From the NCBI GenBank assembly GCA_009103225.1, contig RHPI01003587.1:124001-188000 (forward strand): 64,000 nucleotides of DNA, in the 5' to 3' direction. The notes beneath the pieces were generated by a model. It saw only the letters and a list, made by a program, of their open reading frames with translations, searched no databases and was not told where the DNA came from. Numbering within the stretch: position 1 is the stretch's first letter; each line of letters opens with the position of its first letter. The position numbers and the translations under genes are program-made. Below are positions 7,452 through 56,900 of the stretch, piece after piece. The DNA is from Chlorokybus atmophyticus. Its lineage: Eukaryota; Plantae; Mesostigma and Chlorokybus algae.

Positions 7452-7462
7452 GGTTGAGGTTG

Positions 7463-29937: not shown

Positions 29938-30160
29938 TAATAGGCACCTGTTAGTTACTTACCAGGCCTTAACAGCTGACTATTCCCACTTAATAGGCAC
30001 TTATTAGTTACTTATCATGCCTTAACATAACCATTTAACGGGCACCTGTAAGTTGCACATCAAGCCTTAACAGGTGACTATACCTAATCTACAGGCACCT
30101 GCAAATTACACATCAGTCTTACTTAGGTGACTCAGTCTATGTGACAGTCACCTGCAGGTT
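29938..30160. repeat. Degenerate tandem repeat, ~45-55 bp unit, 4-5 copies
   Basis: Recurrent (taat/taac/tac)aggcacctg...ccttaacag(c/g)tgact. Confidence 0.75.
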
Positions 30161-33110: not shown

Positions 33111-33832
33111 CTTGCAAGGGCAATTGTTTTCTTTTGCGCAGTCCATGTGATACATGTAGCGTGGCTGCAAGCCTCCACTATTCACCCATACCCACCCCAC
33201 AATCAAGCCAACATTGCGGAAGCCAGAGCAGGCAGACAGAGCTGGGTGGCGCTATGTTGTTGCCAATCTCGCTGTGCATGTTGACTGCATGCACCTCAAA
33301 TGCATGCATACCTTTGCATGCTAGATTGTGCGTGAGCGTGCGAAGTCACGCGCGCGTGCTGAACGAAGTAGGCTGGGTTTGAGCACAAGAGCTCGTGGCC
33401 ATTCATCTGGCATTCAACCAGTCGTGCATCAACCAGCAATGCCGCAGGCGACTGTTCGAAGCAACCAGCTGATGGACGGTGTGACGCAGTTGACTATTGC
33501 AACTGCAGTGTCGCAAGTATGCAGCTAACCCACATGTAATTCATTAACAGCACCACAGTATTATGTTCTGTGAGAGCTCCTATGCAAGCCTGGATTCAAT
33601 GCCATCAACTGGTCCTTCAATCCCACTTGCTGATGGGCCCGACGGCAATGCGGCATCAGTTTAACATGCATGTTGGCCTGTGGAATCCCGACATGTTCAT
33701 TGGAGTAGTGGCGCATCCTGTGCCCATAGCTCACGAGCTCTGTGACGAGTCTGCGACTGAGGGTGGCAGGGAGAGTGTACCCAATACCACCTTGTCAGCC
33801 CCCATAGCTTCCCCTGCTCCATGCAGCCCACG

Positions 33833-36800
33833 TGTGACGGTGCTCGTGCCTTGTCACCTGTGCGTTGGTCCGATCCACAACCCTCTCACCGAGACACGGT
33901 AGTTACATGAGAACCTTGCCCCCTCTGCCAAGCACACACGCGCGCCCCGCCACTCGAGTACGCATGCGCATGCGCTCAGAGCTACACACCGACTTGTGTA
34001 GTGCCTTGGATCGTCACACAAGCAAGCACACACCAGTGGACACATGCTAGCAACCCCTGCTAACCACCACAAGGCTTGCACACAAGAAACTAAGGAGCTA
34101 AAGGTTGTCTTACAAATTATAGAATGTCAAATTTATACCTACCAGCCTGCACATGCTACTGTCTAAACGATTCTAGCGCTAGACGGAACTTGAAGCTAAG
34201 ATTCTTGCAGAATCGTGTACTACACTTCTAGACCTTTCCGAAGCACCAAAGATCTCTTCATTTGCTGCTCATATGGTCAAGTTATACTACTTGGCGCGAG
34301 GCCCTTCCAATAATCTGGCCGTGCCCTTCTCGATTAGCCCTCCGTTTTCTGGCGTCTTCCATACTGGCCCTGGGCCGGTCGATATCTGCGGCAGACTTGC
34401 AACTTGCCGATATCCGCCACAAGTCATTAAAAACATGATATTTCACAAATAAGGCCTAAAATGGCAATGAAAATCACGAGATTTAGCCTTGACTGTTACA
34501 CTCGTTCCCCCCTAGGTGAGCTTTGTCCTCGAAGCTCGCGAGGATGTCGTCGAGCAAGATAGTCACGCACAGCGTCTCGAGCATTAGCCAAGTGTGCCTC
34601 TGGCTCCCGGGATGCTTCATGCAATGGATAGGCCTTCCATTTCACTAAGAACTTGCGCACGCCATGCACAAACTTCTCACCAAGGATGTCTTCTACCTCC
34701 CACTCTGGTTTACCATCCGTGCCAACTTCGGGGGGCGGCCTGTCCGGCAATTGTCCTCGATATGCTTTAAAAAGGGAGACGTGAAAAACGGGGTGCAAAC
34801 GCATGGTGTCGGGTAGCTCCGGCTTGTACGCCACGTCCGAAATAACTTTGTTGACCGTAAATGGTCCCAACCAGCGTTCATTCAGCTTGCAAACTCCCGT
34901 ACGCACATGTACATGCTTCGCGGAGAGTAACACAATATCGCCTTCCTGAAATGTGAGGTGTCGGCGATGCGCGTCCGCGTATTGCTTCTGCCTGTTATGT
35001 GCCACCAATAGCGCCTCTCGAGCTGCCTTATGAATGTCCGCGCACTTTGTGAGGAAGTCATTAGCTGCCTCCACACGCACGTCATGTCATCGCGGTGTCA
35101 ATGCTGTCAACGGTGTCAATGGATGTTGTCTATATTTCATACAAAAGGGAGTGACACCTGTGCTGGCATTGTGGTGGTTGTTGATTGCAAACTCCACCAA
35201 CTCAAGCAGCTCCGCCCAATTGTCTTGTCGCGCGTTAACGTAGCAACGCATGTTCTCAATCACACGGTTGGCCCGCTCCGTTTGCCCATCGGTCTGCGGG
35301 TGGAATGCCGTGCTAAACTTCAGTGTAGTACCTAGTGCACTATGCAGCGCCTCCCAAAACTTACTTGTAAAGCGCGGGTCGTGATCACTCACAATGCTTC
35401 GTGGTTATCTATGAGAACGAAACACATGCTTTACGAACAAGCTTGCGGCCTCCGGCGCCGTGCAACACTCGCCACACGGTGCCAAGTGTACCATTTTGCT
35501 AGTTTTGTCGACGAACACAAGTATAGCGTCGTACCCTTTTTTTGTCTTTGGTAGCCCCGTGATAAAGTCCATGGTAACTTGCTCCCACTTGGACAATGGC
35601 ATAGGGAGAGGTTGCAGCAACCCACCTAGCTTTTGGTTGCTTGCCTTCACCCTTTGGCATGCGTTGCACAACGCCACTTGGTTGCGCACATCGCGATGCA
35701 TCTCTCGCCAGTAAAAACGCTGCTCCAAGCTTGCCAAAATCCTCTCCAACCCTTGGTGACCAGCAATGGGCACGTCATGAGCTTCCTTCAGCAACTTCAC
35801 ACGGATATGCGCGACGTTGGGGATGTACAAGCGCCCGTGGTGCCATAGCAGCCCGTCGCGCATTGACCAATGCCCACTTGTGTCCGTAGCTGCACTTTCC
35901 AGCTCTTACAACATTTTTATACCCTCCGTGTCTTCACGAAGCACTTGCCGAATCTGGACGATCCACTCGGGCTGTACTTGAGCAAGTGCCCCAATTGCAT
36001 TAAGCGCGTTCGTAAGTCCGAAGGACACGACCAACCACTCGTAGCGCCCATAACGTGTGTTAAAAGCTGTTTTCTCCACATCCTCAGGCGCGATGCGGAT
36101 TTGGTGATTACCTCCAGCAAGATCAAGTAATATGAGGTACTGCGCACCTTCCAAGTGCTCCAGCAACTCGTCGATGCGTGGGAGTGGAAAGCAATTCCTC
36201 TTCGTGATGTTATCGAGAGCTCGATAGTCGACGCACATGCGCAAGCTCCCGTTCTTTTTTCGTACAAACAAAATAGGTGCACCATAACGGGACTTACTAG
36301 GCTTGATGTAGCCTCTATTCAGCAAGTCCGCCACCTGCCTCTCGGCCTCTTCCAGCTCAAAAGATGACAACTTGTATACGGGTCGATATGATGGCTTGTG
36401 CACGCCCTTAATCAGCTCCACACGGTGGTCAAAGCTCCGTGGAGGTGGTAGACCAAATAAAAGTCCGTCCACCATGATATCTTGGTATTCTTTAACAAGT
36501 TTACACACCTCGGGGTCCATCATAGCCGTCTTAACATCGTCACTCAGCTCCGGTGCTGACTTTGCAGTGATTTCGCGCACCACGCACAACCATGCAGCCT
36601 TTGCCTTCCGTGGAAACAGTAACTTCCTCAATTGCACATAAGAGGTCTGGGCAATTGTCGTACCACCTAATTGTGCATGCCGCGCCTCAATGACGTCCGA
36701 CGCACCTATGGCAAAATTTCGCTTGCTTTCCACAAAGCGAGCTTCCTCTTTAACAGGCATGCGCGTACACCTTGAATGGACTTTCCACCGTTTTGTTTGA

Positions 36801-39477
36801 TGGTGAGCACGCGCTTCCTCCAAATGATGGATGGAATATGTTGCCATAGCCACGGTAGTCCCAAAATTCCGTCAAACCCGTTCCGTAGGGTGATGCAGCA
36901 ATATCGCATGTTCTCCTTCATCTTCCCACATAGTTGCACAATGCGCATACGGTATTTGATACGTCAAGAGACTGATACGGGTATGATACTTTGCATGTAA
37001 AACGTCGATGCGCTTAATACGCCAAATGCACCCAACATGTTGACATGTTCTAGGGGCATGGTAGGTGGTAAAGTGGTTTATCATCATGTAATCGCGATAG
37101 CCGCACATCTTGGCATCGTGTGCTGCGCAATAAGTAAGGGCTTTGAAATGCGGCGCAGGCCCAATTAGGGCTTTGCAGGCACCTTAATTATTCAGACCCA
37201 AACCCTAACCCTAAATACGCGTATTACCGCGAATATAATTCGGCGGACAAGCAATACGGGTATTATACCGTATGCATTCTGACATTTATCCGTATTGTGC
37301 AACTATGTCTTCCCAATGCGATCGCACAACTCTTTGGTCATAAACGCAGCGCCATCACCTGCAGAGGGTGGCTCTCTATCAGCGAGCTTCACTTCACCTC
37401 CTCGTAATGACGAAAGCCAACCGTAACGCCGCGCAATAACAATACTCATAAAGTTGCTGTTGGCACCGCTATGAATCATGAGCTTACACTCTCTCCATCG
37501 TCCTTGGTCATCGCAAATGTGTGCTCGAAGCCCAAAGTACTTTGTTGTCTCCTCTTTGCATAACTCACCACCGTTAGCGCGTTCATAGCCATCTTTTCTT
37601 GCTTCCTTGATGGAAATGCCACAGCATCCGTTCGTGCATGAGGCTCCTTCCTATCCCCAGCAGTAGCCTCCTCACCTACTGGGTGAAGTCGTTTTCCTGC
37701 TCCACGCCATTTTACTCCATGGTGTTGACGCGACGATCACGGCGAGGGGTGCCATCCGGTGTTGGCCTTTGCGTGCTTCGTTTGGGGCATCCGTACGCCA
37801 AATGCTCAATCCACCAACACGCATAACACTTGCGCACACCTTTACCTCTTTCACCACGTCCGCCATGCTTCGCCTCACTTCCACGCGTGTGTATGGCACC
37901 CACCTCCATTGGTGCAGGCCCAAAGTCAGCTCCACCTCCATTGGCAAGCGCTAAACTTGGTTCTCCTCGTCTCCATGCATGTTGAAAGCCTCCCCGGGGC
38001 TGATCACCATGCCTTTGCCTCCAGTTAGTGTTTCTTGTGGTGGACTTGAAGTACAACGCGTCGAGACGCTCCGCGATGCGTATAGCCTCCGCGAGTGTCT
38101 TCGGGTCCCGTAGCTCCACTTCTTTATGCCCCAAAGGTTTCAAACCACGTGTATACATGTCCAGCTGCTCCTCGTCGGTTATATTGAGTATGGACATCAC
38201 CAATTGCTAAAACGCAGCCATGTACGCCATCACCGACCCCATTTGCACAAGGGCTGCAAGTTTGTCGCGTGCGGCCTTCACGCTCTCAACGAGAACAAAT
38301 TGATGCCTGACATCCAGTACCAACTCTTCCATGGTGGTCAATGGCAGTGCCATCCAGTTGCAACACGCGTACAACGATCTCCACCATACAAGTGCTGCAC
38401 CTTCAGGCAATGTCGCTGCAACATCCACGTGCAGATGCGTGGGCACCTCCGTGAGCTTCAATCAAGACGATACTTGAAAAGTCCATTCATCAACTGCATC
38501 TCCATCACGTTGACCCTTGAATGGCTTGAGCTTTGGCACCTTCACATGCACGCGCGAGCTTAATGCCATGGGAACTTGTATACGCGCCATCGCATGCTCA
38601 TATGCCTCGCGTTGTGCCTGTGCCGCCGCTTGAGTGTGATGAAGCTCTTCCCTGCGAGCATCCTTCCCTCAATGCTAAGATGGCAGCTTGAAGCTCTTCC
38701 ATGCGAGCATCCTCCATCTTCACTAACACACTGCACTCCGCCGCCAAATGAAAAGCGTAAACGCCCACACATTTCCGCTCTCCCTTCGTAAACCGTGCTC
38801 CAACACCAGTTGTGACGGTGCTCGTGCATTGTCACTTGTGAGTTGGTCCAATCCACAACCCTCTCACCAAGAAACGGTATTCACACCGGAACCTTGCCCC
38901 CTCTGCCGAGCACACACGCGCGCCCCGCCACTCGAGTACGCACGCGCATGCGCTTAGAGCTACACACCGACTTGTGTAGCGCCTTGGATCGTCATACAAG
39001 CAAGCATACACCAGTGGACACGCGCTAGCAACCCCTGCTAACCACTACCAGGCTTGCACACAAGAAACTAGGGAGCTAAAGGTTGTCTTACAAGTTGTAG
39101 AATGTCACTTTTATACCTACCAGTCTGCACATACTACTGTCTAGACGATTCTAGCGCTAGACGGAACTATAAGCTAAAATATTCTTGCAGAATCTTGTAC
39201 ACTTTCAGACCTTTCTGACGCACCAAAGATCTCCTCATTTGCTGCTCATATGGTCAAGTTATACTACTTGGCGCCAGGCCCTTCCAGAAATCTGGTCGAG
39301 CCCTTCTCAACCGGCCCTCCGTTTCCTGGCGTCTTCCATACTGGCCCTGAGCCTGTCGATATCTGCGGCAGACTTGCAACTCGCTGATATTCGCTACAAG
39401 TCATAAAAATCATGATATCTCACAAACAAGGCCTGAAATGGCCCTGAAAATCAAAAAAATTGGCCTTGACTGTTACA
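33833..39477 (-). mobile_element. Chromovirus B (Ty3/Gypsy), decayed, RT C-half and RNase H deleted
   Basis: TG...CA LTRs at 33833-34500 and 38811-39477 (visibly diverged). Perfect TSD CCACG. PBS-like TGGTGTTGGAGC. PPT GGGGGGAACGAG. gag (APMEVGA), RT up to FGLTNA, integrase (TMDFITGLP, SDHDPRF, QTERAN), chromodomain EWEVEDIL...FLVKWKAY. Confidence 0.92.
36929..37307. mobile_element. 379-bp hAT-type MITE inserted in the chromovirus B protease region
   Basis: TIR CATAGTTGCACAAT and perfect 8-bp TSD TCTTCCCA (36921-36928, 37308-37315). Internal ATACGG repeats and AAACCCTAACCCTAAA. Confidence 0.9.
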
Positions 39478-39612
39478 CCACGGTTATCGAGGTAAATCGC
39501 TGTCTTTTATGATTGTGCTATGGTAACAATGCGTCAGGCACATGCATAAGCTTATATTCGTTTTTTTCAACATTGTGAGCCATCTTATTTTAAATCCTAT
39601 ATACAACCCCCC

Positions 39613-40587
39613 TTGCTGCATGCACGTGGTCTCACCTGCCGCACCTGCTCCCCTCGCAGCCAGAGCGCATCCACCTTCTGCGGCACTTGTGCTTCATGCA
39701 CTGCCGTCTCCTCCACGAGCAGCACCGGTGATTGCGGGGCAACAATCCTTTTTGCCGCAACCGGCGAGACCACAGCACAATGCAACAACCGAGGTGACTT
39801 CTACACCTACCTTACCCCACCCACTGCAAGTTGAAGCCGACAGTCTGCCCCAAGCTCATGTACTTTATCAGTCACGCTGATTCTTGCCGTCGACAATTGG
39901 ACACATCATGGGATTGCTGTATGCGCAAGCAGCAGGGGTCATCACCTGCCAGCGAGTTATCGAAAGAACTGGCCGCAACCCGCATACGGCCATCAGTCAT
40001 GCTAGGTGGCCAGCTCGCCTCATAAGACCACTTCAATGCGCCAACGGATGGTAATTGCTTCAACCATTGTGTGTTTCATGCTAGGCCGTCCATAGCGCAA
40101 TGTGTCATGGATGATTACAAGTGCACCAGCTCGAGCCGATTTTTGGCCATGCTGAACACCATGGACGACAACGGCAAGGGGGGACATTCTCCGCAAAATT
40201 ACCGCCAATGCTGTTGATGCAGGTGTGGCGAGCAGAATCCTAGACTTTTGCACAGCCACTGGTGCCGCGGGAGAGATATCATAGTATTACGACAAACTGC
40301 CTGCGACCATGTTGGCTTATGTCAATTGCAACATTGACATAGCCATGGCTAAGGTGCGACAGATTGTGCGGAGAGACGATGTGTACGTGGAGCACGTGCA
40401 AATGACCATGTTTGCCAACAAGCTGGGCTTGTTTATTGGCTGCGTGACCGTTCAGCGGGAGCATGGGGAGTGGGTGCCACGGCCCGGCAGCATAGTTGGG
40501 GTTGGAAATACAGAAGCCCCCAACTTAGTCCTGGTGGTGGGCGACGCTGCTCCTGATGAGCCAGAAGCACACTTTTGGCTCCTCTAG
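39613..40587 (+). pseudogene. Zinc-ribbon-like piece followed by an OTU-like cysteine protease domain
   Basis: CRTC...FCGTC, then APTDGNCFNHC (40047-40058), VEHVQMTMFANKLGLFIGCV and EAHFWLL. One frameshift in a G6 run (~40180) and a TAG at 40282-40284. Confidence 0.5.
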
Positions 40588-41989
40588 CCGGCAAGCTTCG
40601 AACAATCGTCGTGGCCTATGCATGAAGTGCTATCGATGGTAACAAACGTGATCGGAGAGTGGCGAAATGGCGTTGCCAATCCCCCGCTACCACCGGCTGT
40701 GACCCAGGGTGCTGCGCCAACGCCTCAGGCCTCGCCTTCGTATGCTAGGCAAGAAGTAGCCGACTGTTCTGCACATCCTGCCTCCCCTCGACCTCAGCCA
40801 CATGCTCGCAATTTGAACACCCTCCCTTCCTTCGCCGCAAATAATCACTTGTCATCGCACTCTGACCATCCGAAGGTATCACCATCAAAAAGCAGCGGTA
40901 GCTCGCCCTCTCCCTCTAAGCTTGCCACATTGATCCCAGCCTGTCTTGTTGGTAAAGAGATTGATTGAGGTGTCCTGAATGCTGCGCTGGAAGACAAAAG
41001 CTGCATGCTCGACCTCATGAAGCAACACGAGGATGTGGAGGCACGGGAGGCAACCAAGAAGCGCAAGACTGTGCAGCAAGAAATTAACGCCTTACCTCCT
41101 TTGAATGACACTACCACGGGGAGCGCCTGCCAGGATGTGCAGGGTGACCAAAAATAAAGAAATAAGGTTGTTGAAACAAGGGACGTTGATAGGACCATAA
41201 AAGCAAAGGTGAGGCATCGTTACAATGTAGTTTGAAAAAGCACAGCGCCTTGAAGCCTCACTGGGGTTGACTGTGTGTCCTGAGTAGGCACAGCGGGTTT
41301 ACAGCGTAATGTGGCTGCTCAACATCGTCAAGAGAGACAACCAATGCGGCACGAGCTGCATAAGCTCAAAGCACCGACGCGCAGTCTTTTTGAGGGGCTG
41401 ACTCGTAGTGCAAAGGAGTTGATCGCCCTACAATACCCCCAAGACGCGCTGCACCACCGCATGCGGCATGCCTCGAGGTGGGTGACGAAAGTATGCAGTA
41501 AGTGGGAGCAAATGCGGAGAGTGCAGTCCAAACAGATCTCTGGGGATTCGCCGTGGTTGGAACCTAAACACGACATGGCCATCCGTAGTACATTGTTGCC
41601 CCTCGCCGTCCTCGATATGATGGTGTTGTTGCTGCCGCATCAACCCGGCAATGTGCATGACCTATCCGCGGAGCAAAACTTCAACCTGCTGCAGCAGATG
41701 TACCTATTGATGTCGTTTGATGCGGGTCGATATGTGTGCTACTACCTCAGCAAATATACTGGGTGGCAAGTAAAAACATTCAAGCTGTACCTGACATGCA
41801 TTGGCTGGTAGTGGCGATATGTCATGCGGCACATCGAGCTGACTATGTGGAAGCTCGACGAAGATCGTGCGGGCGATTACACAATTGACGACAGCCATGT
41901 CAAGGGCTTAAGTGAACGCATGCTAGACGAGACCACCAATCAGGTGGTGTATGGCGGCGAATGGTTGTCAGGTGATCAAGTAGGCTGTG

Positions 41990-42112
41990 GAGCGTTATGC
42001 TGCGCTATTTGGATGGGAGTCGCTGCACCTGCAACGCGATAACAGAGTTTGGTGGCAGAGGCAGCTTGCACACCCGCGTGCACCATGCGTGCTGAATTGT
42101 CGCATAGAAGAG

Positions 42113-42209
<97 letters not shown>

Positions 42210-43190
42210 NCCCCCGCGGATGGGGAGACGCCCTGTTGCAAGCAAGCGATGTGCCATGTCTGCATTATATGCTGGCAAAAGCACGTGACAAATAAATCAA
42301 AGGAGCTACAAGCGTGTCCCATGTGCAAGCAACCTCACCGATTTGAGTTGCCACGCTTGCTGCAAGATGCCAATGTGTCGGCGGTGATTAGGCCCCCGCC
42401 TTGATTACAATTGTGCATGTACTGTAGTTTTGTGTTATACACCTGTGAACCATGTAGATACATGTATAGTTGCAGCATCGTGCATGGTGCACCCGAGATC
42501 TGCTGTTGTCAGAAGTATTGGCTGTACATGTGTATGAGGATTGCCCAGTGCATGAGTCAATGCATGGCTTGCATACCTTGCTGGTTCAGAGCGTGGTCGA
42601 CAGCAACAAACTCGGACAGCGCTCTGGGTTTTATGAAATGACAGCACAATCGTACTCGCATACTACTCGTGGTAGTATGCGAGTATTCTTGTACTGTAGT
42701 ACCAGTAATGGATGGAGTACCATTTATGTTGATGTAGTACCATGCATCGTACAATAATACTGTCAATGGTACAATCGTGCTTCACTTGAAGTGTGACTCA
42801 TTTAGGGTTCGTAAGCTAGCAACCATAAATTGCTACCCATACCCTAAAGTCTCGCTCAGTTTGTGGGCAGCCGTGCCGATTCTTATCTTGCATGATGTCG
42901 GCGGCAGCAATTAATTCCCCCTCACCTAAGAGACCATGCTGGGTGTGCCCACAATGCAATGCGTACGTATGTGCCAATGGCCGTGAATAGCGGATGCGAA
43001 CACATATGACCGAATGCCAGCGAGTGCAGACATTGAGCCTCGGTTTTAGTGCTGCTTGCTGGCATCACACCACACACAACGTCGATGTATCTGGCTGCCG
43101 CCTCGGCAAAGTGCTGTGCAAGAAACCCGAGTTTTTCCATTGCATGCAGTGTGTGTGCAAATCGTGCTCGCGCTCATGCTTCGAGTGGCG
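41990..43190 (+). pseudogene. RING-like and PHD-like Cys/His-rich fragments
   Basis: LCCAIW ... ETPCCKQAMCHVCIICW...ACPMCKQ (42225-42340), then EDCPVH, CWVCPQCNAYVC and FFHCMQCVCKSC. Interrupted by a poly-C gap and an insertion. Confidence 0.5.
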
Positions 43191-43468
43191 AGGGGAATCT
43201 ACGCGCTTCTTCACATGGACAACACCGGGACATATGGTTAGTGGACAGGTGGTGGATGCTGTGGAGGTAATTCGGCAGAGTGGACAGCAACGTATACCTG
43301 CATTTTATGTTGGGCGTATGCTTATTTCATGCATGTTGAAGCTGTTGTCGCATTCAGAGCAGTCTTTCATGGTGTGGGCGCGAGCAGCTTCCACCCCCTG
43401 ACCGCTATAGATGAGGCAACCATCGACCATTAAACAGCGCACTGCATAGGCTGCGGAACGCAGTTAAG

Positions 43469-43710
43469 TTGGGATGCGAGCAGCTATTCGGTGTGAGTGT
43501 CATGGTGCATTGGCCGCTGAATGGGGAATGGTATGCGGGCGTTGTGGAATTATTCAAGCAAGCATCAGGTCAGCATCCCTTTTTGGCATGCGAGAGTGAG
43601 GACGCATCATATATGCATGGTGCAATGGAAAATGGCTTTGCAGGGCAGCACCGTATGGTATTTGATGACGGTGATTGACCACAAACCATCAACTTGAAAG
43701 GGCACAACGT
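43469..43710 (+). pseudogene. Tudor/Agenet-like domain with a 75-nt intron (43569-43643)
   Basis: Spliced reading LFGVSVMVHWPLNGEWYAGVVELFKQASGQHRMVFDDGD*PQTINL matches the plant Tudor pattern W/WP..WY.G.V...H.V.YDDGD. Confidence 0.7.
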
Positions 43711-43727
43711 ATTCACGTATATATCAG

Positions 43728-44561
43728 TTGACGGGGCACGCCATGTTCTGCGCCGGAGGGGAGAATGTCAGTCGCAAAGTAAGCACGGACGGCATCATTG
43801 TTGGTCTCTGGCCAGCACCACGGCCAGCCTTGACCACATACACGCCATTTAACAACAAGCTTGGACGCATACACAGACCAAGGGCACTCGACCTATTCAG
43901 CGGCGGTAGTGGTGCCAGTGTCGGCCTATATCATGTAGGCTTTGACGTGAACAGGATGGACATAAGTCCCTCCTCTGAGCACCCTCTGCCCTTCATAAAC
44001 CGCGATGTATGCACCCTGAGTGCAGGACAATTGAATGAGTATGAGCTCATATGGGCCAGTTCACCATGCCAGGCCTATTCATATGCTATCCCGGCACCTG
44101 CATGGGCAGCACATGGCACATCCAAGAGACATCAGGATGTGATATCGCTCGTCCGACATGTGTTGCTTGCAAGCCAAGTCAAGTTTGTGATTAAGAATGT
44201 GCCAGGAGTAGCTTCCTCACATAGACCCAATCTGTCCCTTTGTGGTACGATGTTTGGCCTGTCAACCTTCCGATACCGTCTGTTTGAGACACAGCCAGTG
44301 GTAGCTACCCCACCAGCACGCTGCTTGCATGCGGGCAAGGCGATTGGACTGCTATCGCCGCACCTGTCCACAAGCGTGAAGAAGACAATTGTGACATCAA
44401 ACGCACCACAGCAAATGTACCCGGTCTATGGCTTTCCAAGCACCAGGGGCGGCATTGCTGCAGGGCAAACAGCGCTGGGAGTGCCATAGACGACCTCGGC
44501 CGTTACCATAGCGAATGCTTTTTCTTCCGTAATGGCGGAGTGCATAGGGCGTCATGCTTGA
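43728..44561 (+). pseudogene. C5 cytosine DNA methyltransferase, short bacterial/phage-like type, pseudogenised
   Basis: Motif I ALDLFSGGSG, II GFDVNRMDI, IV WASSPCQAYS, VI VIKNVPG (ENV to KNV), VIII-like LCGTMFGLSTFRYRLFE. After the in-frame TAG (44487-44489) comes motif X-like IANAFSSVMAECIG. Confidence 0.85.
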
Positions 44562-44869
44562 AACAATGGATATGCGCTGTGACTACCCTCCTATGTCATG
44601 GAATCATGAGGCTTGAGTGTGGTGCACTGTATTGATGCTTAATGCCACACGGCTGACTAATTGTTAAATATTGCATTTAACGTTCGATTGTGGTGACGGT
44701 TGTGCAATAACAGCTGCCCCGTATTGTACACGTCCACATGCAAAGTCTTAGCATACGATTAGCAATGCCTAACTGACTGATATGCTTCAAATTCAGAGTA
44801 GTGATACAAGTACATGTGTCACGTGGCAATGTAGTGGACGTTTACCGGATACTTGCCCTCTTGTACACG

Positions 44870-47760
44870 GGCGCTGTCCTTGTCAAACATGGGGAGCAGC
44901 TAGACAATGCCTTTTATTTGCTCCATAGTCACGACATCGAGATGTGACCCCCCTCGACGCATTTCCCATTCCAAAGCGATGCACTTTGTGTCGCTCATCA
45001 CATCTAGCTTCGTATACCAGCGGACAAACACGACCTCCTTCCACACACGCTTGCCACTACCACCCCACACCACCACGCGCAAAGAAAGGAGTGCCTGAGC
45101 CCACCACGTCACATTCACACCGTCCTCATCACGTTCCAGCTCAAGTGTAGAGAACCAAGGCCGCTCACGGAACATCCCGGTTGCGCGCGCCATGATGATT
45201 CCTGATGTCATGTCACACCGCTGCGCCTCCGTTCACCATGCGAACAGCACGCCATCCATAGGCCACTCCAGTTGTTCCCTCCTCAACCAGCTGTCTAGGG
45301 TGGCAGGCAGTGTGTCGGCGAATGGAGTCTTCGGGGCGACTTGGCGGCTACGCGCAGATCCGCTCCAGTACGGGCTAAACTCCCTCCTTGTCAGCACATC
45401 CATCCGTAGCAACTTGTCCGTCTTCTCCATTACATTACCGCACTGCTGCCGCGCCTGCGCCATGACCGAGCAAATTTCGGGATCCACAACCATGCCAACC
45501 TCTTTCACATAGTTCGCACAGCTCCATGCCTACAGGATATGAGCCTGGTAGTCCCAGTTGTTGCCACCACGCGCCCATAATTTGATGTTTCGGGCATGCG
45601 TCTCTTCCATGCGGTTGGCGCTGAACCAATCTAGGTGTCCAGTACTGACAATTGCCGGCCCAAAATGAGTGAGCTCTTGCATCTTCTCGATCTTCCAACC
45701 CAACTTTTGTGCAGAGTATCACGACAATAGCGGATGCAACACTGCAGATTTGAAGGCAGCCAGCTCGTTGTCGGCTGTGATCAGAATCTCTCTTGCGTGT
45801 TCATGCGCCTTGAGTAACTTCTTGTTCCACTGGGCAAGCGATGCGGCAGCAATGGTGAAGAAATCGTTGCCCTCATTGTCGAGCAGCAAACCGTGTGCAA
45901 GGATCGGCAGCAGCTGCAGCACCGCCACTTTCTCCACCAGCTTAAAGGATTGGTTGGACAGGAAGAAATCTACTACTCTAATGCTTATGGGTGCCTTGAT
46001 GTGCAAAACCCGTGGAGTCGCCTTGCATGCATTCAACCTGTGCACATCTGCATGTAAGCACGTGTCGCTGTCTTTTGTGTTAAACACAAATGCAACACTA
46101 AAGACGTGCCTAGCCCGCAGAATCTGTCTCATGGATGGACACATGCGCTCTTTCGCAGCGTCGTACACAGCAGCAAGCAGGTGGTCAATGATGCCTCCTA
46201 GCACATGCATTGCGTCAGGGGCGAGACGAGAGTAGCAGTCAGCTCTCGGCACCTGCGACTGTCGCCAACCCCACAATGCATTCTGTTGCCAAGCCACATT
46301 CTTTTCATTGATTACACGAAAAGCCATTCATCTTCTTAATGCCGATAATTTGACCATTACCTCCTTGACATGCATGGAGTGCTTTTCTTTCAAAGCCTTG
46401 GCTGTGTGGCGTGCATACCTAACACCGCTATGTAGGTCCGCACGCAGCTGTCGTACTGCTGGTGTGTAGAAAGCCTTGGTTCTCAATTCCGCCTCCTTAT
46501 CCATCAACAGATTTGGTTTGGTGACGAGATCAACATCGTAAGGATGTCGTGTTTTGTTGCCCGACATAGTGCGTGCGGGCGTGGCAGTCCCATGCAACAC
46601 GACAAACTCAAATGCTCCACTAACAACATCCTCCATGCACTGTTTGCCGGCAAGCTGTATATGGTTACAACCATGCATGCCCACTACCTGCAAGTCGCTG
46701 ATGTAGTCGGCAAGGACGGGAAACACAGGATGCTCGATGCCATTCGGGGCGATGAGCTGCAGGCCTTCCCAGCTCGCCCGCTTCACATCCCATAACACTA
46801 CAATCAAAGCTTCATGAAAAAACTCACGTTTTCGAATTAAAAACGATTCCTTGCCCTGCGCCCAGGTGGATGCCCGGCCACCGCGTGAACCACCGGCAGA
46901 AGCGCTATTCTAACAAACCCCATATTGCTAGCATACATGTCCCAACTGTAGTTGGCAAGCAATGCCATCAGAGGGTAGTCAGCGCGCTTGCCCGCGCTGT
47001 CCAGCGTGGTCTTGTCACTGTACATAACGGCAGGCGCCAAGTAGGACGCTTCCCCCACCTCTGTCCTCAAATCCACCTCAACATCCTTCCACCAATCGCC
47101 CGTGGAAGGATGGCCAAAGCTATGCTCGTCACCACTATACTGGAGATTGAAGCCATTAGCGGCATGTGGATTACTATACAACCGCGCGAGCAATACCTGC
47201 TCCAACCAAGAGCATTAAAAGCCATAATGGCCTGAGATTTGATACTGCATTAGATACTACATTTCACAGACCTTGGCCGGCATATAAGTGATGCTGATGT
47301 CCTAATCCTCAGGGTCTCCAGGCTTGTGCAAGTCAGCCGTCACGTTGTTCTGATACGGCAGGACACTCGCATGTGCATATGTCACATGGCTTTGGTAGTT
47401 GAAGCAAATGCACCGCACACCGTGAACACACCTCACAATGAGAGAAAGCAGTTGTGGTCCGGAGGTAACTGGTCACATGCACACCGGTCTCCCGCTGGAG
47501 CTCTACCGTCAGGAAATGTGCATTTCGGATGCACTTGATGATCCGCCCCATGTTAGAGGCTCAGGCCTTGGCCGTTGTTGCACTACACGAATGCCACTGC
47601 AAGAGCCTGCTCCAAGCCACACCACCTGAATTTCGACGCGTGCGAAGGGACGCCTCCACTTCCATGTTGGCGTGTCACAGGTTTCGCAGGCACACACACA
47701 CATCGAAAGCCCTCGTTCACTTCCTCCTCCTCCTGCTCCTGATGTGCGTGTGTCGCCTGA
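44870..47760 (-). pseudogene. Plavaka-type (CMC-related) transposase, degenerate, with introns and stops
   Basis: HPSTGDWWKDVE, AVMYSDKTTLD...DYPLMALLAN, VFPVLADYISD, PDAMHVL.GIIDHLL, and C-terminal VVFVRWY...LDVVTMEQIKGIV. Confidence 0.8.
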
Positions 47761-48449
47761 AGGGGTCCTTCAGCATTAAGCATGTGCGCATCATGAATTA
47801 AACTCCCCGGTTTAACATGACCTGCATCGTACTGTCATGGACACTGGCCGACATACAGCTTGATTTGCTCGCACACCCTGCTGCTGACAATGTGCACGTA
47901 GACCGCGCTGCGTGTGGCGAAGCGCATGTGGCAGTACGGACAAAGGACTCCAATAGCTCACTCCTGACGTCGACACAAGTGTCGCCAACGTAACCTGCAT
48001 CATTAAATCCAGCAACACACACAGCCACCGCCGTCGCCGCCACCGCCGCCGCTACCCTTGCATGCTAGAGGCGGGACATTTGGCCGCCATTCACTGGCGT
48101 GACAGCTCCGTCGTACCATTACAATGGTACAATTGAGCCATTGCACGTCCTGGCTGGGGTGAGTCTGCATAAATATCTTAATTGAACCGTTCCAATGGTA
48201 CGAAGATGCCTTTGCCAAGAGGTACCAATGACAAGTGCTTGAAATGGTACCTTTGTACAGTGGCAATGGCAGTTCGTACCATTGACAAGTGGTGGCAATG
48301 CCAGTCCCTGCATATGAAAACACCATTGATGGCTCCGCCAAGCTATGCCCTTACAGGGCGGTAATGCCGAGGGTATGCGACGTTCGGTGGATCGTTGGCG
48401 GTGCTGCCAGGGGCGTAGTGGGCGTTGTGGTCGAGGTCCGGGATGAAGC

Positions 48450-49117
48450 CCATGTTCGCATAGGGAGAGCAAGGTGCCGGTGGGGTGTCCTTGGTGTTAA
48501 ACCCCATCATGCCTACCAAGGGCACAGCCAATGACAACAGAGACTTGGGCGATATCTTACAGGGCTCACCCTCCGAGTGGGCAAAGCATGTCACAGCGCA
48601 CTCGACCACAAAAGACTTGGTGCTTGTATGGTCGATTTGTGGTAATTTACTGTACCTTCCCGTTACATCCCCCCCCACTTAAGAACGCTGACGTCCTCGG
48701 CAGCTGGCGCTCATCAGCTGGGGAATCTTCCAAGGGGTCTGATTTAGAGTGGGTCACCGGCCCCACCACCCAAGGACCGGCCAATTAAGGCCCATACCGG
48801 TCAACGCGCGCATAGCGCGCCGCTGCCGGCCCCACAGGTCGCGTCGCCGCGATAGGCAGGTCGCGCCCTGCCGCGCCAACTGAACTGGTCAGTTCGGCGC
48901 GACTGCCATTAGGCAAGTCGCGACCCATTGATGATGGCACTTATAAAGTGACCATTTACGATGTTATTGGATCGAAAAACAACGACCGCGGAATTCGTGT
49001 GCAAGGCAGGAATTGAACCCGGGTCTCAAGCTCCGATGACCAATGTCATAGCCCACTCGACCACAAAAGACTTGGTACTATTATGGTCGATTTGTGGTAA
49101 TGTACGTTCCCGTTACA
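48450..49117 (-). mobile_element. Miniature LTR element (TRIM-like), related to chromovirus A at the PPT
   Basis: Two diverged LTR starts TGTAACGGGAA...GACCACAAAAGACTTGG at 49117 and 48667. CGAGGACGT...AAGTGGGGGGGGA-TG PPT as in chromovirus A. No ORF. Left boundary and TSD unresolved. Confidence 0.65.
48999..49070 (-). ncRNA. tRNA-like Pol III promoter inside the LTR
   Basis: A box TGGTCGAGTGG (49053-49063) and B box GGTTCAATTCC (49009-49019), 44 nt apart. The D-stem GTCG/TGAC pairs. Confidence 0.7.
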
Positions 49118-51599
49118 AAGCCACACCACAATATTGCCTCCAGGAACATCCCACCCACCAGTAGTTGCAACCGCGGCGACATGATTGAAGGGACCAAATA
49201 AGACGGGCATACCCAAGGTGGGTTATAATGCACTGTCAATGCCACATGCTAGGGTTTTTTTATCGTGCACATGCACAGCCTCAAGTATCTTGCACATGAC
49301 ATACACTGTTAATACCACATGCACACCCTCATGCACAGCCTCCAGTGTCATGCACATGAACATCATGACCAATCTCGCAAATGCACAGCCTATTTCTACT
49401 TACGGGAGCTCACAAGTTGCAAAAGAGAATCTGCGGAGTACCACGAACGGGTAATCCATGACCTAGTTTGATGTTTCCAGCGGCACTTAAGCAGTATGCT
49501 TGCGGATTGCCATGTTAGACAGAGTGAACCAACAGCAGCGCAGCAGGCTAACTATATGCCTAGCGGAGCGCAACAAAGTGGAAGACAAGGTAAGCATGTG
49601 TATGCTGATGGGCTAGTCCTCTGGTGCTGACATCAAAGCTGAAGGACGAAGTAGCCGCTGTATTGTCAGCGAGCGAGGCAGCAGATGAAGATGACTCCGA
49701 TGTTGAAGCAGAAGACTTGTCGGAGGAGGAACACGAGGAGGGGGTTGAGGAGGAGTTCTGAGGCAGGCACCACGGGTTGACAAGCTGCGCATGAGTGGGA
49801 CACCTAGATTGAATGTTGTATGTAGTTTCATGCGCAAGTCGGCTGCTTAGTTGCAAGTGGACACACTCTCACCACTGCGAATACGTTGTACATATTGTGG
49901 GCTTATAGTTGCAAGACCAAACAATCAGGCCAAGGTTTGTACAAGCTGCATGGCATGTTAGTGTTGGCTTACGACAAGGATTGTCAACTTGTGTCAAACG
50001 ATAAGGGTCACATATGAACAGCAGTATAACGGCAAGGAAACTGCCGGCTATTGCTGTCAGCTGTCCGTGACTACCGACTAACAGCCATTTATGCACATCG
50101 ATTAAAGGGTAACTGGTTGACAACTCTTGGCCGGTCAGGGCCACCGACAACCACGTTCACCCCGCGGTCGTCTGCGTCAGTCCACATAAGCCAACGGCAA
50201 ACCCAAAAGTCCAAACGTAACATTCCAGGCAGCGGCAGGCAGGCTCAGGCACCCGTCAGCCCCTCAGTCCTTAGTCAGTCACTATGTCAAATTTGCGACG
50301 TTGTCCTTAGTGGGTGCACACTTATATGTTAGAGGCGCATACACACAAACACTAGGCGCATCACTAGTTCTCAACATCCCCGCCCTCTGCCAACACCGTA
50401 ACTACTACTTAATATTTGGCCTAAGCTGCGCCGCAGCCATTTTTTGTACACCCTTGTCAGGGCGCTCATCCAGTGCTAGGGGGCTATGCATTAGCTTCCC
50501 CGTGACCTTTAAGCTTTGCTTATCAATAGTGTGATTTACAGCTCGTCGGTTTAGGAGCCTTGAAGAAGATCCTGAGGAAACCCTATGTGCTCTAGGCATT
50601 TGGGGGCACAAGAGTCTCATAACCCATCGACGACTTTTAAATGTTATGGGCGTGCATTTCATTCGCTTTATGAACTCGTGCGACTTACGGGGCGTGAGGG
50701 CGGGTGCCAAATGGCAGCAAGCTTCGCCACCGCAACTGTGGCCTCCATTGTATCGCCTAGCTTAGTATTAAATCACAAAAACCGTTACGCCTCGTCCCGT
50801 AGTACAGCCTTTTGCCACCATAACCAAAGGGTTGTTACATCCACTCACCCTCCTCATAGTTCCTTACCCTTACCTCAAACATGGTGGATGTCTTCAACAA
50901 CCTCACCGCACTTGCCACCTATGCCAACAATGGCGCCACCATGGTAGAAATTGAAGCGACAAGAGAAGACACATGTCATAGAAAACTTATTAAGTGAGTG
51001 CTTGTGCCCTCTAATGGTGCAACCTGAAGCACAGAAGGTGCAAGAGTCTCATATGAGTGACTTAATAATTATGTGTTTAAATCATGAGCGCTAGCGCTCA
51101 CTTCATGAGCTTCATGAACTCATATATTATTATATGCTCGTAGTGTTGTGCTATAAAATGTATGATTCTAGCAAGCCTTATACAGCTGCATACATCTGTA
51201 TACATTCTTATAAGATGCTCCATGTTTTTGCATGCATGCTATGACACAATTAGACGGTGCTTAAAAGTAAGCGCACATAGTCGTAAGAGCAGGTCTGTTG
51301 TTGCAATTATCGAATCCGATGTAATGGTGCATCATACATGCACGCAACCATAGACTACGTAACTGCGTGCATGTGTAACTTATACGTATGATACATTAGA
51401 TGTACATCCTTATGGCGTGAAAAGTGGATGTTCCCATGCAAAAACATAGCAACTTTTTCATGCATGGTTGGACCGCGTAATGAAATTAAGGGCTTTTGAG
51501 CATACCATGCAATGTTGGCAACACAGACAAATAGTGTGCGTGTGGTTATTCGACAGCGCAACATTTGTATTATTGCTACACCACCCCCCAGCTAGCTAA

Positions 51600-53200
51600 C
51601 AAGCGTACTTTAATTGTTGCCATAATATTAGAACGTGGGGCTCAATTAGTGGTCACGACAATGGAGGCTCAGCATTTACATTTATAATTAAATTGATATT
51701 AATATAGGTAGAATAGAAAATAAGATGCAAACAAGCTTGCTGCTGGAATCTCTTCAACTACTCTGTATCATTACAGTGCAACTACAAATGCTGACTTTGA
51801 AAGTCTTCAACCGCTATGCACAAATACAAACCATAAAAGTAAGTACAAGGAGAGTTAAAGTTGCTTCATTAATTCGTCAGTTACTAGTTATTGGTATAGA
51901 GCAATGCCGACTTTAAAAGTCTTCATATGTAAATATTCGCTATACAAATTGTTTTTACAATGGAAAATACTTCATGTTAAAGTGAAATGTGAGCGGATTG
52001 TATGATGAATGTTGTGCATTGATTATCAAGCTAGTACAAGATGTATAATGTATGTTGTCAAGCCTTATATGCAATTCTTTGATAATTCACTACTATTTAA
52101 ATGAGTACATTTTTGTAAGAAGTTAACGACAATAACAGTATTTATAATGCAATGACATTCACTTGATGTCAATAACATGTTGAACAAAATAATCATTAAG
52201 TCAAGGTATGATGATTGTAAAGAACGAGCTTATACGGTGTATAAAAATGTAAAGTTATACCGACAGTTATTGATATGCCTTATTGAGCTACTTTACAGCT
52301 TTTAATCATATGAGGTACTCTGACATTTAAATATGTAAAAATACTCCAGGCAATTTGTCGTATGCATACATTCAGATATCATAAACCCAACTTAATTAAT
52401 CATGCGTTGCCCTTTTTAACATGCAGGAAAATTTAGCTGATGCCGGTTGCAAACCGGCAGTACATTGGCGAACTTGCAACCTAATGTTAGTGCGTCAAAC
52501 ACTTGATGGTGATGCAAATGCACAGCTTTATGCTCCAAGATCGCCTCATATATACAGCTTCTGCACTTTCGTGACGGGGATTATAACGGTATTTAACTTT
52601 ACGTCATGGTAAATTATTACTCATGACTCATGCAAAGTAATGCAGTAATAGCGTATTAACACAAAAGTGCTATTATGCACCGTTAATGTCCCATAAGAAA
52701 CTCTACTTAAAAAATTAATCCCCGCTTATGTCCCAAGATAAAGCTACAGTGCTAGCTATTTGTATATGTTGTTGCAATATATATCTTCATACAAAAATCG
52801 GAGTGAATTTTGCACTTGTTTGTACAAATATGCTTGTACTACACATTCGCCTTGTTTACACATTAAACGAATAGCTATACAACGCTATTGTCTGCTACGG
52901 CACGCAGCGCGACAATATCAATCAATGTATATCATGAATATGAATCACATTTTTTGTGTCTAGGCTCGAGGTCGTAGGCAAACACCCTTGCTTATTACAA
53001 TCAAGCAAAGGTGTTTGCCTATGATTATCGTTCTGTAATGATTGTGTTTCATATACAACATATATGAGAGATAAAAAGACCGAATTTGGTAATGGCATGC
53101 AATGCTGTATTATGAGTAAGATTGATACCGTATAATATAATATGGTTGGAATGGCATATGGCATGGGTGCGAGAAGCTGAGATACATGTCTCATTGGTAT
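51600..53200. other. AT-rich non-coding tract between the TE nest and host genes
   Basis: Visibly AT-rich relative to its flanks, with no credible ORF. Confidence 0.6.
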
Positions 53201-53941
53201 GATGCACCAAGCAGCACCCTCTTCGCTCTTAAAGCGCTTTCACCTTTACTCGCAACATCAATGAGTATAAACCTCGCATAAGTGGTTCAGGAGTTAAGCC
53301 TTACGCCACGCGCACCCCTTTAACACAACTATCCTAGCTGGGGTCGCACGGTGGAGACCCCATTGCATCATGAAAGGCGCCGTGACAGCAACCGCATGAA
53401 CTATTCACTGTCGGCATATTGTACTCCAAATTGCGCATATCAAGGCTATTCATGCGCCATTCATGATGTCGCCCCAACCATGGCATCTTGCCACCATTGC
53501 TGCTCAGCATTGTTAGCTATAATTTTATTGAGTACACAACCTGTTTGGAGCTATTGTGGTGTCGTAAGCTGCTCTTGATGAGCGCGTCTGCAATCTCTCA
53601 TGATGAGGTTGGGAGTGAAGCCCCACCTTCCTACAAAGCGGATTCATACACCGCAAATGGATTTCGTTACCAAGAATTACCACTTAGTTAGGCAAGCGCC
53701 ATGGCAGTAAGGCATTGCTAGCTCGAGCACCCATTCCACAAGCGCATGTTGCTTGGATGAAATGGCCTCCACTATAATTTCCCACAATTACAATGATGTG
53801 CATAACCCATGCCCCCTCCCGCGTCTTTCCAACTACTGCATATGTGCCCAACAAAGGCAAAACCCACGTGCAGACGCACCCACTGACCGGTTGAGTGAGA
53901 GGTCAGCACAAACAGCAATCGAGCAACGACCAAGCACTTCA

Positions 53942-56900
53942 TCAAGGCCAGTGTTTCTTCTGTTTCGCCGAGCTCTGCCGCGAGTAGCCAGTACTACTAC
54001 TGGAGCTAAGCTTGCTGGCAGCTGTGCACAGTACACAACGCAGAGTAACTTCCATGTAACATACATCTTGAGCTTGATAGCGCCCATTTGCGCTTGGCGT
54101 GCTGGTCTTTCTGTTTAAGGAAGACAACCTCTCTGGCGGCATGTTGCTCTGCGAATGCGACGGTGAGCTCAATCCGCCTGTGGCGTCCTCAAGACACGGT
54201 ATGTGGTATGAGTGCGCGCAGAAGAAAATGGCCACGCTGCCTTGATGCATAGAAATGGGGTCCAAGCACATGCAGCATCTGCCGCTGCCGCTCGGGACTG
54301 TGAACAAACGACCAGATGTTGATGGCATCTGCAGCTCCTCGTCAGCACGCGCAGGTGCTGCTGCGCTTGGGGTTGCTGCCAGCTTCTCTTCATTGGGCTG
54401 CCGGCTGTCGCTGGAGACAGTGCTTCCTACAAGCAACAAGGCCACGCGTTTACATAAGAGTGCACGCGTTTGCTGGCTTAATGAGTAGACAAGACGCAAC
54501 AATGCAGAGTCGCGCAAGCCAAGTGTGGCGGTTATGTGGTCACTCACCGGAGGTGACAAGGTTGCCAACATGCACGCCATGCTTTGCTTCAAGGTAATGC
54601 CGTTCTGCTAGCGCCTGACAATCAGCCTTTAAGATCTCATTGCAGCCATGCGACAGCGACATGTGCGTTCGGTAGTCGGCAACTATACGTACAAGCCGGT
54701 TCCGCAACCTGTGTTCAAGGAACAGCAAGTCTGAGTCAGTGCGCAATGCCATGACAGCTATGCCAATCTCTGCGGTGGCTATGCAACAAACCCCTACCTG
54801 GGAATGGGCATGCCATCAGGAACACGCTTGAGCAGTAGCAGGGGATCTAAGTGGCGCCCTATGTGTTCAAGCAATGCGCCAACAAGATTTGGGTTTGTGA
54901 GGCTGCGCGTTATGAGATCCTCCCACAATTCATCGTCGTGTTGCTCCGTAACAAATTCTATCGCCTGATTACCACACGTCAGAATCGGTATTGTTATGGG
55001 TGGCTGTCATGGCAGCAAAACTGGACAAAATTTAGCAACTCATGCGAATGATGCACACCTGCTCAACATCCTGCAACTTGTCCATGATGATGGCGAGCGC
55101 CTCGCTGCTGTTGCCCATCCGCCCCAAGACAAACACCATTTCCCGCATCAGACCGCGTGACTTGCAGACTTCAAGTGCCTGCACATAATCTGTTGTGACA
55201 ACTACGCCAGCTGAAAAATGCAGAAGGGGATGACGCCAGTTCAAACCTTCTCAAGCGGGTAGTAGTTGCTAGACCGCAAGAAGGGAAGCAGCATCTTCCT
55301 GTCGTAATCTGCATACAACTCCACCTGCAGACACACAGCTGTACATCTGTGTGCATCAATGAAAGCTTGTGCCCCGCATTCTCTTAGTTACCAAACTGCA
55401 CACTCGGAACTGCGTGGTGGCATTGCCTGCATGCCTGTACAATCGCCTAATGGCTGACACACCTGAAGTGCATGAAAGTCTGAGCTGGCTGAGGGGTGTC
55501 GCTCAAACAGCTCATGCAAGTAACGGTGGAGGTGCGGCCGAAACTCTTTGCGCTCCTGCAGCTGCGATACGACGGATGATGGCGGAACAGACTGCCAGTT
55601 CTCCACCAGCATGGCAATGGCGCGAGGAGGGTCCAGCGCCACCAGCATCGCAACCTGGCAGCGGACATCATTAGGATCGTACTCAACAGCTGAGACAGCA
55701 AGCCAACTGGTGGCCCTGAAGCGGACCTTATCATCAACAGCTGTGAACAGGTTGTGCTGTGCAATAAACTCGAACGCTTGGGGCCGCTTCAACTCCAGCC
55801 AAATAGCCAGGGTGCGCTCCAACTGCCCGTCATACTGGTACAGCTCAGCCAGAGCTTCCTTGAGCTCTACCGTCTGAGGGCCACTCTGCCGAATCGCATA
55901 TCAGCTTTATCGCATCAGCTGGCCAGAACAGAAAACCAAGCATTTACTTTGTAGCCACAGCAAACAAACCTGCAATCGTTGAAGTGCTGCTGCTATAATG
56001 GTTTGCACGTTGTATACATCCCGTGGCCAGGCCAGGATCGTGGTAAGAAAGCGTCCATGGTCAGCGGGAAGCGCCAAAAACGTGTTGAGAACCACCTCAT
56101 ACACTGTGGATCGCAACCTTGGGTTCTCCGTGGGTATGTATGACGCGAGCGCCGGGAGCTGGCGCAAGTGCGCGAAATGGAAGACAGCGCGCTCCCACGC
56201 CGCAGCACTCAGTCGCAGCAGCTTGGGACAGAGGGCTGCTGCCTTCTCAAACTGCCTCTCAGCTAAAAGGTGCTCAAGGTAGCGCCCGCCAACCTCTTCC
56301 AAGGTCTGCGCTTGCAATGAGGGGCTCGCTTCACCTGCCTCCGCGGCGGCCAACGCCCGCTCATACTTGCCATGCTGTCAACAGCACAACTGATCAAGCG
56401 CGAAATACGAGTACACTAGCTAGGATGATGTAACCTGAGCGGCCTGCACGTAAAACAGCAACCCAACGGTACCTGAAGCAGCCAAGCAATGTGATCGTCT
56501 CCATCCCGGGGTCGAGCAACCACCAGGTCCTTTGGGGACACTATATAATACAGCGGCTCTTCACCGTCAACCCATCTCCCGTTGCGCGCAGTTCGCGTGA
56601 TCATGGTCTCACTCGTTTGCACTGTGGGGGCGTGCGCCAGCATGTAGTCGTTGGCCTGCGCACACACACCATGCAGGTAACCAATCTGACATCACCATAG
56701 CATACGGAGCGCCAGCAGGCCATTCGTCCAAAGTGGCAGCTTACTTAGCCAGCACTGCACTAGTTGCTGCTGACCTCAAAGTGTTCGTAGCCGTGTATGG
56801 ACAGTGCATCGGAAGCGAGTTCTTCATTGGTCCAAGTAAGAATGCGCACTTCCGGCCGCTCCGCGAGCCTCTGTCCCGCGAGTGGTGCCTTTGTGAAAGG

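Follow-up and report, generated by a model that had tools for sequence, protein, structure and literature searches.

Plavaka transposons are now placed with the EnSpm/CMCT elements, a position that replaces the Plavaka/KDZ grouping used in a preliminary description of the locus reported here, and both their termini and a TET cargo have been described (PMC12730594). They occur in chlorophytes and streptophytes (PMC13519894), and viral DNMTs and Plavaka giant repeats have been treated elsewhere (PMC11244446); PMC12633428 was also used for comparison. Fungal PlavakaB elements with TET/JBP genes likewise combine a Plavaka transposon with a cytosine-modifying enzyme, but their cargo is an eraser and their host a fungus, whereas the putative cargo in Chlorokybus is of the writer type (PMC12730594). 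The red-algal Plavaka elements with PAG1–3 (Bostrychia moritziana) are likewise large and carry accessory genes, among which are a putative writer of DNA methylation and genes with chromatin domains; by contrast with the Chlorokybus enzyme, which is of the C5 type and has a Tudor-like neighbour, their PAG2 is a putative N6-adenine methylase (PF01555) fused to SET (10.1101/2025.02.11.637652). The PAG cassette (PF01555 with SET, and a 2OG oxygenase) gave no Pfam match in the pieces of our locus that were scanned, where decayed pieces could escape such a search.

Capture of a C5 methyltransferase by an algal transposable element is also known from SymbioLINE-Dnmt, SymbioDIRS-Dnmt3 and KnitGypsy-Dnmt3, but these are retrotransposons whose own ORFs contain the enzyme, which is mostly of the eukaryotic Dnmt3 type (PMC5890265), whereas the Chlorokybus case concerns a separate gene from the compact viral family and a cut-and-paste element. 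Mariner-1_OLpv is likewise a DNA transposon encoding a C5 methylase; it resides inside a virus genome and couples its 344-aa enzyme to an endonuclease in a restriction-modification-like arrangement (PMC3627910). The preliminary description knew of no Plavaka element paired with a C5 enzyme, and such a pairing was indeed not found in the literature searched (main texts, mostly outside subscription journals); the related Plavaka adenine methylase and Mariner C5 enzyme are nevertheless in print, in the sources cited above.

The locus lies in a 64,000-nucleotide stretch of Chlorokybus atmophyticus DNA (contig RHPI01003587.1; hereafter the window, numbered from its first nucleotide). The window is intron-bearing eukaryotic DNA in which Vps41 and WD40 genes are accompanied by numerous remains of Ty3 and hAT elements. 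The host Vps41 gene (minus strand) and the divergent WD40 gene (plus strand), which we take to be PLAA/Doa1-like, both contain introns and occupy 53942–63200. An inverted repeat of 1073 nt, whose arms are 99% complementary and enclose 1.7 kb (4697–8535), interrupts hAT remains and carries the start of an ORF duplicated in both arms. At 8616–17365, two Ty3/Gypsy pol copies that are nearly identical lie 5.6 kb from each other, and one of them has an open frame of 1210 aa. Long poly-C/poly-G runs at 42112–42215 and near 3690, each with N, are probably assembly artefacts or gaps. For comparison, a single public run (X1) was used, which shares 8% of sampled words and whose organism is likely another, related strain or species. 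In the middle of the window a decayed compact C5 methyltransferase gene faces a decayed Plavaka transposase. The methyltransferase is, in our judgement, probably cargo of a Plavaka-type element; if it is, intact copies are quite likely to be active DNA C5 writers. The fuller reading, in which the dead gene is Plavaka cargo and intact copies methylate the element's own newly inserted DNA, is the one that we favour on balance.

Motifs, profile and fold together identified the catalytic domain of a compact C5 cytosine methyltransferase pseudogene at 43860–44616 on the plus strand. Its frame runs from 43698 to 44489 and, read through one TAG, to 44561; the position of its start is uncertain. In the translation of the window, all the motifs of the preliminary description were recovered on this strand and in the expected order, comprising DLFSGGSG (motif I, FxGxG; 43890–43913), ASSPCQ (motif IV; 44055–44072), VIKNVPG (motif VI; 44187–44207), LCGTMFGL, RYRLFE (with RYR as the RxR of motif VIII; 44271–44288) and, after the in-frame TAG at 44487–89, ANAFSS at the position of motif X (44511–28). 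The layout is that of a compact enzyme in its motif order, as had been proposed, but not in two details, since AIPP is replaced by ANAFSS and motif IV reads SSPC.

Searches with the Chlorokybus protein placed it in a large, phage-rich family. PHROG 363 (phrog_363, DNA methyltransferase) matched at E 6e-15, phmmer returned 2456 representatives at E<=0.001, and tblastn against a phage collection returned 303 records at ~33% identity. The Pfam DNA_methylase profile (PF00145), which had been suggested as a check, gave a weak match below the cut-off (14.6 bits versus 22), as it does for several intact relatives, although the phrog_363 match and the predicted fold speak for the same enzyme class. 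A structure model (pLDDT 71.9, built from an alignment of relatives) supports a C5 methyltransferase fold, its top Foldseek matches in the PDB being C5 methyltransferases (DNMT3B, DNMT2 and M.HaeIII) at 14–22% identity; the best viral structure match was the Pithovirus LCPAC201 C5 methylase (36% identity, E 2e-11). For eukaryotic DNMT1/3/5/CMT, phmmer found no PDB chain at E<=1 and fold matches had 13–19% identity. The trees comprised compact-family rows, leaving out DNMT sequences and the Pithovirus LCPAC201 enzyme. Sequence comparison thus supports assignment to the compact prokaryote/phage-type C5 enzymes rather than to DNMT1/3/CMT, as originally claimed. Phage members such as those of Mycobacterium phages PP, Pukovnik and Redno2 (phrog_363) share the short layout, LCG.MF and R.R.FE at ~33% identity, but have neither the PVYG..RG and DYxP signatures described below nor a transposase context. 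No activity data for the compact phage C5 family were found in the literature searched.

The phage-rich membership of the family and the intronless catalytic domain are what would be expected had bacterial or phage DNA entered the assembly by contamination or misassembly. This is extremely improbable, because the GC content (0.53) and CpG depletion (o/e 0.64) at the methyltransferase match those of its flanks, the gene is contiguous with eukaryotic transposons and intron-bearing genes, and the independent run X1 holds variants of the entire block in which it lies.

Within the family, the Chlorokybus methyltransferase groups with proteins that bear a long insert after RLFE together with a PVYG..RG motif. 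Support for this subclade was 94 (SH, FastTree, 154 rows), 89 (SH-aLRT, quick IQ-TREE, 81 rows) and 93/82 (careful tree, 36 hand-chosen rows), with the Chlorokybus protein on a long branch (1.4–1.9) and the subclade support unstarred in every tree. A profile built from the 30 clade sequences scored 186.7 bits on the Chlorokybus protein, versus 146–171 for 20 random 30-sequence profiles. Motif comparison located the subclade signature QMYPVYG...RG at 44412–44456 (plus strand), and PVYG..RG occurs in 26 of the 30 clade proteins but in none of the 224 remaining members of the family. There is some circularity in these tests, as PVYG..RG was in part considered when the clade was compiled and the searches were seeded with the Chlorokybus protein. 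A second signature, consisting of motif X, G, 11 residues and [DN]YxP, is present in all 10 proteins of group A (MBD-group proteins with a C-terminus), in none of the 17 of its sister group B and in none of 222 others.

Members of the subclade include Klebsormidium nitens GAQ92615.1, which is 39% identical to the Chlorokybus protein over 170 aa, and the JGI gene model Chrzof1 UNPLg00428, presumably from Chromochloris zofingiensis. One group B member sits in the giant-virus bin GVMAG-S-1074258-81 (G001/L081), a label that reflects the IMG/VR bin class, with a capsid match below cut-off (E 6e-4). The insert of the relatives, ~60–130 aa long and located at the target-recognition position, is recognised as an MBD above cut-off in P0011, P0017, P0179, P0181 and P0295 and more weakly in P0155 and P0028, giving profile matches to MBD2 structures; in group B it is MBD-like by eye only. 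Alignment with these relatives revealed no MBD or MBD-like insert in the Chlorokybus protein. The MBD-insert subclade is thus its nearest kin by tree and by two signatures, although the insert itself is missing. MBD-insert C5 enzymes of 270–440 aa apparently form an unnamed group, and no MBD-inserted C5 enzyme was found in the literature searched (main texts, mostly non-subscription).

Among 154 viral loci fetched, the subclade signature was found in one, the giant-virus bin. Two C-terminal subclade profiles run against GTDB genomes found no match, a weak negative given the few exact patterns on which the scan relied. Viral contig scans with P0184, A3, P0013, P0005 and the window transposase, and metagenome contig scans with A3 and A5, likewise yielded no relative; these negatives are also weak, the contig scans relying on few exact patterns that miss known JGI proteins. 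Scans with A2 and A6 listed generic phage members as matches. Since the nearest kin come from gene sets of green algae and from a giant-virus bin, and none from the GTDB scans, sequence relationships make algal viruses or algal mobile DNA a more likely proximate source than bacteria, and the direct bacterial or phage acquisition first suggested is not supported in that form.

The searches also brought up unusual relatives. P0009 and P0010, the best two phmmer matches, were rejected as nearest kin as they are tandem double proteins whose scores are summed; together with P0034 they were cut to one copy in the 154-row tree and are absent from later trees. P0009, P0010, P0034 and P0292 comprise tandem methyltransferase domains and one family A DNA polymerase fusion, and a search for longer fusions at 768–2190 aa returned a single protein, the PolA fusion. 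P0011, P0017, P0177–P0183, P0295 and P0155 are intact small C5 methyltransferases whose catalytic domain contains the MBD; in Pfam such enzymes are often annotated as MBD only, so that some of them would escape a DNMT survey that relied on PF00145. The K. nitens gene model (P0295/P0293) contains a partial tandem duplication with a fused 145-aa protein, named a HIT-family hydrolase by JGI, which is also encoded on 13–26 kb metagenome contigs identical in length to those with P0177 and P0014, hinting at a viral block.

Set against its relatives, the Chlorokybus copy keeps the FxGxG of motif I and the PC of motif IV (DLFSGGSG, SSPC) but carries several lesions. The first P of motif IV is replaced by S at 44061–63 ([SAG]P[PQ]C in 245 of 254 relatives), E of motif VI by K (AAG) at 44193–95 (ENV in 251 of 254), and W ahead of motif X by the TAG at 44487–89 (W in 199 of 212), while ANAFSS stands in place of the AIPP of motif X. 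The read-through frame closes with a TGA ending at 44561, where the gene was at first thought to end; that stop is real, but a loss of 2 nt near 44551 has shifted the frame, and coding continues in another frame to a TGA at 44614–16. This out-of-frame C-terminal tail (44552–44616, plus strand) contains DYPP and matches the tail of the MBD-bearing group. In X1, two extra bases follow 44551 (depth 145.8 of 145.8, 3 contigs); their insertion brings DYPP into frame, after which the spacing of the window tail follows the group A pattern by eye. Judged from the K in motif VI, the TAG and the frameshift, this copy is dead: the first two lesions had been noted before and are confirmed, and the third is added here. 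Where window and X1 differ, A/T in the window faces G/C in X1 at 288 sites and the reverse holds at 114 (p ~2e-18, with sites treated as independent), an excess that fits decay of the Chlorokybus copy through cytosine deamination. The E-to-K, W-to-stop and P-to-S changes are each reachable by a single deamination change and so fit copy-specific decay.

Such decay bears on whether the enzyme could be a true cargo of which the whole family is catalytically dead, acting as a DNA- or chromatin-binding decoy or as an RNA modifier that writes no 5mC. The lost MBD insert, the degenerate motif X (ANAFSS) and the long branch would suit a family released from catalysis, and the substrates of orphan DNMTs are hard to predict (PMC12344493). 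Yet the catalytic cysteine, FxGxG and RxR are retained, ENV is nearly universal among the relatives, and the damage is of the kind that deamination of this single copy would leave; the frameshift near 44551, the only lesion open to comparison, is absent from X1. We regard this reading, which includes the decoy and RNA variants, as quite unlikely.

The second gene of the pair is a decayed Plavaka (CMCT/EnSpm-like) transposase at 44900–47214 on the minus strand, convergent with the methyltransferase. PF18759 scored 35.7 bits (cut-off 26.3, E 7e-9) at 46840–47214 (minus strand), and the profile continues at 46331–46909 on the same strand (E 0.0017). The gene is damaged by a frameshift near 46867 and by in-frame stops. 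Its open reading persists as far as 44900, which leaves 339 bp to 44561 and bears out the tail-to-tail placement at ~300 bp reported initially. Plavaka transposases have a DDE triad with C(2)C and H(3-4)H motifs; candidates for the triad, picked by eye, are YSDKT (47022), LADY (46714) and RMEETH (45613). An extra base in X1 behind 46867 reduces the stops from 33 to 5 over ~790 codons, and a compensating pair of X1 indels removes one further stop; X1 indels thus bring back the frame in both the methyltransferase and the transposase. On the other hand, among the 12 of 54 indels listed, four at 46303–46337 disrupt the reading of the transposase if introduced by themselves, giving 24 stops.

Upstream of the methyltransferase, the plus strand holds further modules. 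A Tudor-like domain lies directly upstream at 43463–43720, matching a chain of PDB 7DE9 (E 0.003), which we take to be a plant histone-binding Tudor; atlas searches led to Tudor clusters at 0.78–0.84, below the 0.9 lead threshold, and there was no Pfam match for this region. A 75-nt GT-AG intron candidate read from the sequence (43569–43643) splits the domain, and removal of this stretch renders the region colinear with typical Tudor domains by eye; a stop lies within the region at 43676. The Tudor-like and catalytic domains, whose frames differ, could be joined through a donor-like site at 43779 and one of several acceptors, so that a Tudor-methyltransferase fusion through splicing is conceivable on sequence grounds, if somewhat doubtful. 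Farther upstream, a weak RING/PHD-like Cys-His cluster at 42213–42360 had a best PDB match at E 0.075, with top chains all of RING/PHD type, and no Pfam match. Decayed coding remains of a family not recognised extend over 39960–42100, and the upstream and left-flank ORF pieces that were tried gave no usable Pfam, PDB or atlas match. A DGNC motif in these remains (40026–40214, plus strand), with no Pfam match, recalls, we presume, OTU-type proteases.

At 80% likeness, contigs of X1 revealed that the block at 39480–49500 exists there as many variants. A total of 591 contigs cover all 30 bins of this 10-kb block, with a summed depth of 85–409 that does not represent copy number; it is 260–292 over the methyltransferase, 185 at the junction (44505–44839) and 136–318 over the transposase. 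Haplotypes at depth 118–154 recur from 39542 to 47561, including positions 44551 and 44741 within the junction, and are accompanied by diverged pieces at depth 3–4; a single site is overlapped by up to 12 contigs. No contig bridging both genes was present among 8 of 595 pieces listed, and no loose end at the convergent junction among 6 of 91 listed. This is most simply read as a multicopy family of recent origin that spans both genes, together with older copies. As X1 variants cover 30 of 30 bins without a drop across the junction, carriage of the methyltransferase by the Plavaka element, as proposed in the preliminary description, is likely. The ends of the element were not found, however: among 25 shown of 61 candidate pairs, from searches of 26000–33830 and 47200–54000 for Plavaka termini (TGT..ACA or CATCA..TGATG with a 2–3 bp target duplication), there were no convincing terminal inverted repeats with target duplication, so the gene could not be placed between element ends, which may be decayed or lie beyond these ranges. 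Self-BLAST found no second copy within the 64-kb window. An 80-nt repeat, 86% alike (48588–48667 and 49043–49117), flanks a short segment to the right of the transposase; an X1 contig joins both repeats, and the structure may be subterminal to the transposon or represent a small element nested there.

On its left side the block is split by a later insertion, a chromovirus-type Ty3/Gypsy LTR element (33833–39477, minus strand) with a chromodomain, LTRs ~90% identical and a 5-bp target duplication, CCACG, at 33828–32 and 39478–82. The junction of the empty site is present in 2 X1 contigs at 39489. Since the Ty3 element is nested in the block, the block continues left of 33828, where decayed coding remains of a family not recognised (30500–33800, minus strand) possibly belong to the same element. 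That the block reaches past the Ty3 element and includes coding remains there leaves space for a second mobile element, with its own mobilising gene unseen left of Ty3, from which the methyltransferase would derive and which would be nested in, and co-amplified with, the Plavaka; accessory genes do move among transposon families in red algae (10.1101/2025.02.11.637652). Against such an origin, the pieces scanned at 30500–33800 contained no further transposase or helicase, the listed junction contigs lacked a loose end, and the same source gives a precedent for large Plavaka elements of 17–19 kb with several accessory genes. A second element is thus rather improbable.

Slightly less improbable, though still unlikely, is that the plus-strand genes were left by an endogenous giant virus or by foreign DNA of another kind, beside which a Plavaka element landed, and that the enzyme served the virus. 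The subclade is found in a giant-virus bin and on 245–300 kb contigs, the best viral fold match is the Pithovirus enzyme, and virus-derived orphan DNMTs are reported from eukaryote genomes (PMC12344493); the missing element ends would be explained, and X1 could carry the orthologous locus in a few haplotypes. Against this account, scans of 15 + 47 + 22 ORF pieces from the window turned up no giant-virus hallmark, the Tudor-like domain holds an intron candidate, and the variants have similar depth on either side of the junction, where many contigs overlap. Among relatives of the methyltransferase, none lay beside a Plavaka gene in the 154 viral loci or in G001, a count that covers viral flanks only.

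Under the cargo reading, we propose that the gene descended from the compact phage/prokaryote family through a lineage resident in giant viruses of algae and in algal genomes, from which the transposon later acquired it. An intact element would encode a convergent pair, with the transposase on one strand and, opposite it, the methyltransferase, which may be fused to the Tudor-like domain. The reaction is expected to be that of C5 enzymes in general, with SAM bound at FxGxG, the motif IV cysteine, the motif VI glutamate and base flipping. With so little sequence for target recognition, the site recognised is predicted to be short and is most likely CG, a guess based on the MBD of the relatives and the CpG depletion of the Chlorokybus copy; the latter would be explained equally well by host methylation as by the enzyme's own CG writing. 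In place of an MBD, the Chlorokybus Plavaka family may dock on chromatin through the upstream Tudor-like domain. De novo CG methylation could give newly inserted copies the look of host chromatin or restrain the element's own activity; by analogy with a proposal for DNMT-carrying algal retrotransposons, either purpose is a speculative suggestion that we hold to be less than likely.

The cargo of Plavaka elements so far known includes a cytosine eraser in fungi and a putative adenine/histone writer in red algae. The addition of a C5 writer would make this range complete, and it suggests repeated recruitment of viral epigenetic enzymes by the superfamily. The very DNA mark by which hosts control such elements could then be written by intact copies themselves. 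The MBD-insert enzymes are intact, small and easily assayed, which makes it testable whether a methyl-CpG reader steers a C5 writer in one short polypeptide. More tentatively, and with considerable doubt, these observations may trace a miniature C5 lineage that passed from phages to giant viruses and on to green-algal genomes and DNA transposons while gaining chromatin readers (an MBD in the Klebsormidium, chlorophyte and viral members; a spliced Tudor and a RING-like module in the Chlorokybus Plavaka), and so became a mobile reader-writer. If this were true, a recently amplified cut-and-paste transposon would set its own methylation independently of host DNMTs, guided by existing 5mC or histone marks.
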